NCBI RefSeq assembly: GCF_056746865.1
Contig: NZ_CM163382.1
DNA length: 64,000 nucleotides
Reading direction: 5' to 3' (one strand)
The notes under the pieces were generated by a model. That model worked only from the letters and a program-made list of their open reading frames with translations. It had not been told where the DNA came from and did no database searches. Below, piece by piece: positions 56,953 through 57,281 of the stretch. Position 1 is the stretch's first letter. The number at the start of each line of letters is the position of its first letter. The position numbers and the translations under genes were made by a program.

Positions 56953-57135
56953 ATGGCGAAGTGTAAACGAATTCTGTTGAGGTTGACTATGAAAAATGGC
57001 CTTGAACTGAAAGCGCCTGTAACTGATGACATCAGCAGAGCACTGGCTTTTGCCATTAAGTGGGTGGCGGTCGGTGTTGCTGTGTCCCCGATGCTGTATG
57101 GGCTGGCAAAACTGGTCATTGCGTTGAAATCGTGA
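56953..57135 (+). CDS. hypothetical small protein with C-terminal TM segment
   Basis: 60-aa ORF with GGGAGA RBS, located between R and Rz. Confidence 0.4.
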
Positions 57136-57149
57136 AGGGAGGATTAAGC

Positions 57150-57281
57150 ATGTCAGACAAACTCATAACGCTGGCGAAGATCCTCTGTGTAATTGTCGGC
57201 ATTTCATTTTCACTAATGCTGGTTGCTCTTTTTCTTTCCATGGCCTGGATGATGTTGTCTTCGTCGGGGTTGCTGGGGTGA
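57150..57281 (+). CDS. hypothetical 43-aa single-TM protein
   Basis: ATG after GGGAGGATTAAGC; stop lies 12 nt upstream of the Rz ATG. Confidence 0.4.

Follow-up and report, generated by a model that had tools for sequence, protein, structure and literature searches.

In the 64,000-nucleotide (nt) stretch of DNA analysed here (contig NZ_CM163382.1 of RefSeq assembly GCF_056746865.1; referred to as the window), two short open reading frames (ORFs), named ORF1 and ORF2 in the following, lie on the plus strand between the endolysin gene R and the gene for the inner-membrane spanin (i-spanin) Rz of a lambdoid lysis cassette. Comparison with related loci shows that in lambdoid prophages of E. coli and Salmonella the interval from the endolysin gene to the i-spanin gene is a polymorphic insertion slot, which ORF1 and ORF2 fill together with a hairpin located upstream of them. 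ORF1 (56953-57135) and ORF2 (57150-57281) both start with ATG, encode 60 and 43 amino acids (aa), respectively, and are spaced by 14 nt. The Shine-Dalgarno sequence of ORF1, AAGGGAG (56943-56949), is located at the short distance of 3 nt from its ATG and is kept in the Salmonella copies, while that of ORF2, AAGGGAGGA (57135-57143), stands 6 nt from the ATG and has its first base in common with the last base of the ORF1 stop codon; both signals were read directly from the sequence. The stop codon of R ends at 56796, leaving 496 nt to the annotated Rz start codon, ATG 57293, or 481 nt to an in-frame GTG at 57278. The preliminary description of this region, which was made from the letters of the window, had proposed two ORFs with ribosome-binding sites, one of 60 aa with a C-terminal transmembrane (TM) segment and one of 43 aa with a single TM segment, in a gap of about 480 bp between R and Rz; its coordinates and its description of the ORFs were correct.

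ORF1 is a tail-anchored inner-membrane protein, in which a cytoplasmic N-terminus of about 30 residues carrying the conserved motif MKNGLE..APVT is followed by a weakly hydrophobic C-terminal helix. Its best 19-residue Kyte-Doolittle window (residues 38 to 56) scores 1.88, which is close to the value of the signal-anchor-release (SAR) segment of R (1.74). An AlphaFold2 model based on an alignment of 15 sequences (mean predicted local distance difference test score, pLDDT, of 74) contains a helix at residues 2-15, which is basic in nature, a loop and a second helix at residues 26-59. ORF2 is predicted to be a single-pass inner-membrane peptide with a short N-terminus facing the cytoplasm and a strongly hydrophobic core (best 19-residue window of 2.89 at residues 11-29). 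As read from the sequences, 2 residues in ORF1 and about 7 in ORF2 extend beyond the helix, and a lipobox is present in neither. Homology between ORF1 and ORF2 was not detectable (hhalign probability of 3.5%). Each of them has a full-length match to a phage protein family, ORF1 (residues 1-60) to PHROG 1115 (E 3.7e-42) and ORF2 (residues 1-43) to PHROG 4906 (E 2.1e-23); the function of both families is unknown, so that these clusters name the family and explain nothing about the role of its members. Searches of Pfam, NCBIfam, PADLOC and the PDB sequences gave no informative match for either ORF, the only Pfam match being that of ORF2 to DUF3930, with 13 bits against a cutoff of 25. With regard to a spanin identity, neither ORF matched PF03245, the family of the i-spanin Rz, and the lipobox of an o-spanin is missing from both. 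The idea that the ORFs are fragments of a larger protein was also considered and rejected, as long homologues were not found and the longer matches were upstream-extended gene calls or fusions.

Both ORFs are real coding genes, beyond what would be expected by chance. RefSeq annotates them as hypothetical proteins in an identical strain (WP_001446668 for ORF1 and WP_001280932 for ORF2), each exact protein is present on at least 1000 contigs, and the segment 56780-57300 (521 bp) is covered to at least 80% in 989 of 5426 complete E. coli genomes. The genes are also carried by plaque-forming phages, namely PhiR5_2 and PhiR12, and ORF2 by the phages of 276 records, almost all of them Shiga toxin (Stx)-converting and mostly unannotated at that spot. 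Among 17 unique DNA variants of ORF1 and 14 of ORF2, the variable sites at the first, second and third codon positions number 16, 7 and 34 in ORF1 and 14, 10 and 21 in ORF2, which is a third-position bias in the proposed frames. The pooled ratio of non-synonymous to synonymous polymorphism (pN/pS) in these frames is 0.24 for ORF1 and 0.45 for ORF2, as compared to 0.7-3.0 in the other frames and to 0.11 and 0.38 for the flanking genes R and Rz. Between ORF1 and its Salmonella copies, the synonymous divergence (dS) reaches 0.6-0.9 with a ratio of non-synonymous to synonymous divergence (dN/dS) of 0.16-0.22 (Fisher p 2e-7), and for ORF2 against the Stx-phage allele dN/dS amounts to 0.29-0.43 (p 0.01-0.05); as a whole, the dN/dS values are 0.16-0.25 for ORF1 and 0.3-0.5 for ORF2. 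This pattern of substitutions clearly points to purifying selection on ORF1 and to a moderate constraint on ORF2, for which the evidence of translation is independent though weak. Synonymous-biased variation among relatives, whose absence the preliminary description had named as the finding that would speak against the ORFs, is present in both of them.

Evidence for translation comes from ribosome profiling (RIBOseq) of the enterohaemorrhagic E. coli (EHEC) strain Sakai, in which a 'novel gene' XECs191, MMGWLMISDKLITLVKSLCVLVGISF..., is listed as translated (Huecker et al. 2017, PMC5597208). In lysogeny broth (LB) this gene gave 30 reads per kilobase per million (RPKM) for RNA and 12.6 for ribosome footprints, and its product was predicted to reside in the inner membrane with a single TM helix (PMC5597208). 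XECs191 is ECs_1966 in the current Sakai record, where it is located between the antirepressor gene ant and Rz of prophage Sp10. It is the nearest named relative of ORF2, belonging to the same family with about 72% identity, lying directly upstream of Rz and having one predicted TM helix; it differs from ORF2 in that it is preceded by ant and not by ORF1, in a 5-residue N-terminal extension and in an alternative C-terminal allele. The translation signal, which the preliminary description had also named as a test, is thereby in hand for a homologue of ORF2, as weak footprints in uninduced cells. A literature search by locus tag returned nothing on ECs1966, and prophage or lysis genes are not mentioned in 'The Cryptic Bacterial Microproteome'.

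R and Rz are normally contiguous; they overlap by 4 nt in K-12 Qin, phi467, phi458 and a Salmonella phage, and are separated in the clade of Rz alleles that are at least about 77% identical to the Rz of the window. This comparison of junctions bears out the earlier proposal that the ORFs are inserted between two genes which otherwise adjoin, and so does the base composition, since the GC content of the inserted segment is 0.46-0.49, like that of other accessory genes of the cassette, as against 0.545-0.553 for S, R and Rz. In both respects, extra DNA which is absent from Qin, phi467 and phi458 and a deviant GC content, the segment has the features of a moron. The contents of the gap vary by combination of a conserved spacer, the hairpin, ant, ORF1, ORF2 and at least two further types of small membrane ORF which share the slot, namely type C (45 aa, MFDFSKLIREIRVMAEKLSTWKFILIWLVFVIMASGYFIGQIRWW) and type D (28 aa, MSAELIRAMAFAIRIVAIAVLVWAIRWW). 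All of the small ORFs of the slot encode single-helix membrane peptides, and type D together with remote relatives connects ORF1 to peptides ending in ...IRWW. Up to four of them stand in tandem in some prophages, which shows duplication and recombination among these cassettes. One such array lies between R and Rz at positions 3095-3658 of locus L003 (L numbers denote the loci fetched for comparison) and is also seen in L065 and L084; it consists of type C' or ORF1, followed by ORF2, an N-terminally truncated ORF1 and the 28-aa type D.

The plus-strand spacer after R (56797-56886) is conserved, holds no credible ORF and ends in an A-rich tract. It outnumbers the ORFs, with positions 1-172 of the 521-bp query matching in 2134 genomes including ones without ORF1 and ORF2. 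The spacer is followed by the hairpin (56887-56919, plus strand), which resembles an intrinsic terminator and was identified by a terminator scan and by RNAalifold. It has a 13-bp stem and a 7-nt loop and is flanked by an A-tract upstream and the U-tract UUUUGUGUUU downstream, so that it could act in both directions; the U-tract is better on the minus strand. The copy in the window carries one C.A mismatch. RNAalifold supports 13 pairs, of which 2 show compensatory changes between E. coli and Salmonella, and in all contexts examined in these two hosts the hairpin precedes either ORF1 or type C. Folding of the whole spacer gave no structure beyond the hairpin (z-scores of -0.3 to -1.4). This conserved hairpin, the other ORF types of the slot and the mobility of the ORF1 family outside lysis cassettes, to which we return below, had been missed in the preliminary description.

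The two ORFs do not form an obligate pair and are separately mobile genes. ORF1 is missing where ORF2 stands behind ant and an M15 endolysin gene (L010) or behind another small ORF (L008), and likewise in the 276 phage records mentioned above. Conversely, Salmonella prophages with lysozyme or GH19 endolysins and three holin families have ORF1 immediately before Rz and lack ORF2. Homologues of ORF2 were found only in E. coli, and those of ORF1 in E. coli, E. marmotae and Salmonella. Taken together, the ORFs accompany four holin types (PF04971, PF16080, PF05106 and another 'phage holin family' pair) and three endolysin types (lysozyme, GH19 and M15), and many cassettes of the same holin and endolysin type lack them. 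The linkage to the i-spanin gene is consistent for ORF2 and not for the ORF1 family. Within the fetched loci, ORF2-like copies are followed by Rz in 173 of 173 cases and none is found away from Rz, and in every separated cassette examined the last small ORF ends between -4 and 19 nt from the Rz start. The preliminary description had offered a spanin-associated factor as one possible role of the two peptides; this linkage is the only ground on which the suggestion fits ORF2, and it does not fit ORF1, which has relatives where no Rz follows. A further arrangement was observed in the defective Stx1 phage CP-1639 (L108, 1417-2059), in which S and R are missing beside stx1AB and a 45-aa type C ORF is retained directly before Rz and Rz1.

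Analysis of the Rz start suggests a closer connection of ORF2 with its neighbour. The stop codon of ORF2 (57279-57281) lies 11 nt before ATG 57293, which the preliminary description had taken as the Rz start, and no Shine-Dalgarno sequence stands at a suitable distance from this ATG. Other Rz alleles begin with ATG AAC CGT GTT (MNRV...), and the window has ATA AAC CGA ATG at this place, the ancestral ATG corresponding to ATA 57284-57286. The in-frame GTG 57278 overlaps the ORF2 stop codon as GTGA, and a start there gives MNINRML..., a product in which the membrane anchor of Rz is again preceded by a basic residue, the only one, which a start at ATG 57293 would drop. From the comparison of alleles, Rz of this allele therefore probably starts at GTG 57278 and not at ATG 57293, and the start codons of this allele in the databases are probably mis-annotated. 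Because ORF2 ends on GTGA and ATG 57293 is without a Shine-Dalgarno sequence, Rz translation is probably coupled to that of ORF2.

With respect to transcription, a crude consensus search of both strands of 56797-57300 returned no sigma-70-like promoter, and the scan for terminators found none between ORF2 and Rz. Because the ORFs have no promoter of their own, are oriented with the late operon and lie downstream of a terminator hairpin, only late transcripts antiterminated by Q should reach them. We propose that Q-modified, terminator-resistant transcription alone would extend through ORF1, ORF2, Rz and Rz1, such that synthesis of the ORF1 and ORF2 peptides would coincide with that of S, R, Rz and Rz1, at the close of the lytic cycle. 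A separate feature was seen at 56870-56927, where five consecutive A-R-N triplets (AAU AAA AGU AAA AAC) run into the hairpin and its U-tract, resembling an Hfq-binding 3' end; a small RNA derived from the 3' untranslated region of R might be located here. Rfam gave no match for the region at gathering score, and at a low threshold only an insignificant one to the rimP leader (21 bits against 47). The known prophage small RNAs AgvB, AsxR and Pas were considered for the spacer and discarded, as their published positions are downstream of PR' or upstream of the holin gene and not here.

The lambdoid late lysis cassette that surrounds the two ORFs spans 55116-57751 on the plus strand. Its first gene (55116-55331) encodes a class II holin of the phage 21 S type, of 71 aa and with a dual start at Met1 and Met4 (PF04971, E 6.8e-33), the product of which is annotated as 'class II holin' in an identical strain. 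Between holin and endolysin lies an ORF of 297 aa of the DUF1327/YdfR family (55333-56226; PF07041, E 2.7e-40; PHROG 1085 over its full length, E 6.8e-190) with a GC content of 0.463; PGAP, the annotation pipeline, annotates in an identical strain only the first third of it, as a truncated pseudogene. R (56263-56796) belongs to the lysozyme family (PF00959, E 2.4e-24) and bears the weakly hydrophobic N-terminal SAR-type segment mentioned above. Downstream of ORF2 follow Rz (57278-57751 with the probable GTG start; PF03245, E 1.8e-47) and, in its +1 frame, the outer-membrane spanin (o-spanin) Rz1 (57504-57689 in the list of ORFs), which is proline-rich, has the lipobox VVSAC and is annotated in the same layout in an Stx1 phage. 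The next gene (58062-58388, plus strand) encodes a lipoprotein of 108 aa with the signal LAVGC and a TonB C-terminal domain (PF03544, E 7e-13; RefSeq 'TonB family protein') and stands at the site where lambda has bor. Extra genes are thus present at every junction of this cassette (DUF1327, ant and the TonB_C lipoprotein gene). E. coli strain 7/2 is 100% identical to the window over the 521-bp query and has the same gene order and spacing in the cassette; in its annotation, a Q antiterminator gene is located about 3.5 kb upstream and the terminase genes downstream. Elsewhere in the window, Rfam matches at gathering score were obtained for STnc490 (2760-2883), DicF (38539-38590, minus strand), sok (46987-47158) and STnc100 (51650-51854), the sok match implying a hok/sok locus elsewhere in the same prophage region.

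The closest parallel by position is the LysA protein of phage P2, a membrane protein encoded between the endolysin gene K and the spanin genes lysB and lysC, mutants of which lyse slightly early. Like the LysA gene, ORF1 and ORF2 would be non-essential, late-expressed genes for membrane proteins, placed between that of the endolysin and that of the i-spanin. LysA itself is a far larger protein with several TM segments. A sequence relation between LysA and the two ORFs was not detected, and no Pfam family matched either ORF. The second parallel is gp25, the 'releasin' of phage Mu (DUF2730), which is small, membrane-tethered and equipped with a cytoplasmic domain, and whose gene is near those for a SAR endolysin and the spanins (PMC9239132). 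Mu gp25 is a protein of 99 aa with N-out/C-in topology and an anionic cytoplasmic domain of 73 aa (PMC9239132), whereas ORF1 has 60 aa, the opposite arrangement of an N-terminal cytoplasmic part and a C-terminal anchor, and also occurs with non-SAR endolysins. LysA and gp25 may serve as functional analogies, neither of them being a family match. The third parallel is with the lambdoid morons bor, lom and HK97 gp15 in the account of Juhala et al. 2000 as cited in PMC4104026, which ORF1 and ORF2 resemble in their presence/absence polymorphism, their different base composition and their location at module junctions of the late operon. However, a classic moron is expressed in the lysogen from a promoter of its own and is closed by a terminator downstream, whereas for ORF1 and ORF2 no promoter was found and the terminator is upstream. 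Already present in databases as hypothetical proteins, the two genes are uncharacterised members of the class of small phage membrane or moron proteins.

The reading that we favour, with a probability of about one half, is that ORF1 and ORF2 came in by insertion, are expressed late and encode membrane peptides with a putative accessory function at the stage of envelope disruption, the translation of ORF2 being coupled to that of Rz. Its weakest step is the one which would assign the peptides to that stage as non-essential accessories. ORF2 and the other peptides abutting Rz would most likely set or tune the synthesis of Rz and Rz1 and might act on the membrane anchor of Rz, while ORF1 may be a moron-like module whose cytoplasmic motif acts on a membrane-proximal partner. 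Several observations weigh against this reading. The fetched loci are highly redundant, so that 173 of 173 stands for a consistent pattern and not for 173 independent observations, and the ORF2-Rz linkage could be plain co-inheritance of adjacent DNA in a single Rz clade (at least 77% identity to the Rz of the window). Lambda-type phages function without any such ORF. The coding signal of ORF2 is only marginal, and the ribosome-profiling signal is a weak one, from uninduced cells and for a homologue with 72% identity. The C-terminus of ORF2 tolerates frameshifts (L007), and ORF1 is interrupted by an ISEc35 element in one clinical E. coli genome (L009, 1674-3062). From these two cases it follows that the loss of either ORF is tolerated in resident prophages and that constraint in prophages is modest. 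The missing promoter rests on the crude search described above, and the existence of ORF1 relatives elsewhere than in lysis cassettes speaks for a function other than lysis, at least for ORF1.

This last point leads to the possibility that the ORFs are moron-type cargo with no relation to lysis, that is, membrane effectors for superinfection exclusion, anti-defence or modulation of host membrane proteins which are carried along at a late-operon junction that tolerates insertions. In a profile search of 1.8 billion representative proteins, only about 19 relatives of ORF1 were recovered, all of them small and sharing MKNGLE.(D/K)AP.T followed by a hydrophobic tail. Their genes are located at other inter-module junctions, downstream of tail-fibre and tail-fibre-assembly genes (L017 and L107), beside tail chaperone genes (L103) and ahead of a portal-like gene, where two copies stand in tandem (L106). 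The gene of L017 has a terminator hairpin on either side and GGAGG before the internal Met, which is classic moron architecture. For ORF1, such contexts favour cargo of this kind; the GC content below that of the core lysis genes, the alternative alleles and tandem arrays suggestive of a diversifying turnover and the extra genes at every junction of the cassette agree with it as well. Nevertheless, with no promoter of their own and a terminator upstream, the ORFs of the window are not expected to be expressed in a lysogen, ORF2 is never found away from Rz among the fetched loci, and PADLOC defence models matched none of ORF1, ORF2 and type C (0 families). Exclusion proteins known to have periplasmic or surface-exposed domains possess a sizeable periplasmic part, and neither peptide does. 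For the pair as a whole we consider unrelated cargo the first among the alternatives, although clearly less probable than the favoured reading. A relative of ORF1 was also seen in a metagenomic myophage (L104, 3001-3565), directly after a GH19/peptidoglycan (PG)-binding endolysin gene; it overlaps the first of two small lipobox ORFs (68 and 70 aa) without a Pfam match, which could be spanin-like.

A stronger version of the favoured reading would hold that the Rz clade including the Stx phages always carries an interchangeable small inner-membrane peptide (ORF2, C, D or ORF1), and that these peptides form an unrecognised class of lysis component, coupled to Rz and acting on the spanin anchor or on spanin dosage at the last step of lysis. 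We regard this version as unlikely. Somewhat less probable still is the view that the ORFs act in cis as leaders, a short, well-initiated ORF ending at the Rz start having been selected to restore coupling after foreign DNA had come between R and Rz, so that the peptide itself is unimportant. The start of Rz overlaps the stop of R in lambda-type cassettes, every separated cassette examined has a small ORF with a strong Shine-Dalgarno sequence at the distance from Rz given above, and the Rz ATG of the window lacks a usable one; moreover, in L007 the tolerated frameshift brings the end of ORF2 into an ATGA overlap with Rz. Coupling alone, however, would not require that the four occupants of the slot, which are unrelated or only distant relatives, should all be membrane peptides, and neither ORF reaches a dN/dS of 1, that of ORF1 being far lower. 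Moreover, ORF1 does not adjoin Rz in the window and has relatives where no Rz follows.

The preliminary description had also raised antiholin-like regulators and a membrane toxin pair as possible roles, and both have lost ground. Peptides which bind the pinholin or the membrane segment of the SAR endolysin, and so set the lysis clock, would fit a window with an S21-type pinholin and a SAR endolysin, and a helix in ORF1 that is as weakly hydrophobic as the SAR domain (1.88 against 1.74); LysA and gp25 are precedents for extra membrane proteins in lysis cassettes. This role is made improbable by the occurrence of the ORFs with PF04971, PF16080 and PF05106 holins and with lysozyme, GH19 and M15 endolysins, by the many cassettes of the same type without them, and by the searches, in which no Pfam holin family matched ORF1 or ORF2 at E <=1 and DUF2730 matched neither. 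Least probable, to the point of being remote, is a type I toxin-antitoxin-like system, in which one or both peptides would be membrane toxins repressed by an antisense RNA ending at the bidirectional hairpin: the peptides are small and hydrophobic, the hairpin, with its better U-tract on the minus strand, stands shortly before ORF1 in the window as well as in L017, and the prophage region has a hok/sok locus elsewhere, but there is no promoter-like site on the minus strand of the region, no Rfam match at gathering score and no Pfam or NCBIfam match of either ORF to the Hok, Ldr, TisB or Ibs families, the genes form an operon with gaps of 11-14 nt and not an autonomous locus, and each ORF occurs without the other. 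Neither a toxin-antitoxin pair nor a holin-specific antiholin is supported.

The interest of these genes is modest and arises from the consistent unit of small ORF and Rz in Stx phages. Genes of the ORF2 type are present in the lysis cassettes of nearly all short-tailed Shiga-toxin phages, and most GenBank records leave them unannotated. If the proposed tuning of the spanins is true, the peptides would represent a fourth class of players after holin, endolysin and spanin, with a bearing on the timing of lysis in Stx phages and on the release of toxin and progeny. Should they be mere passengers, the junction between R and Rz would still be a well-defined hotspot at which genes for small membrane proteins are swapped and duplicated.

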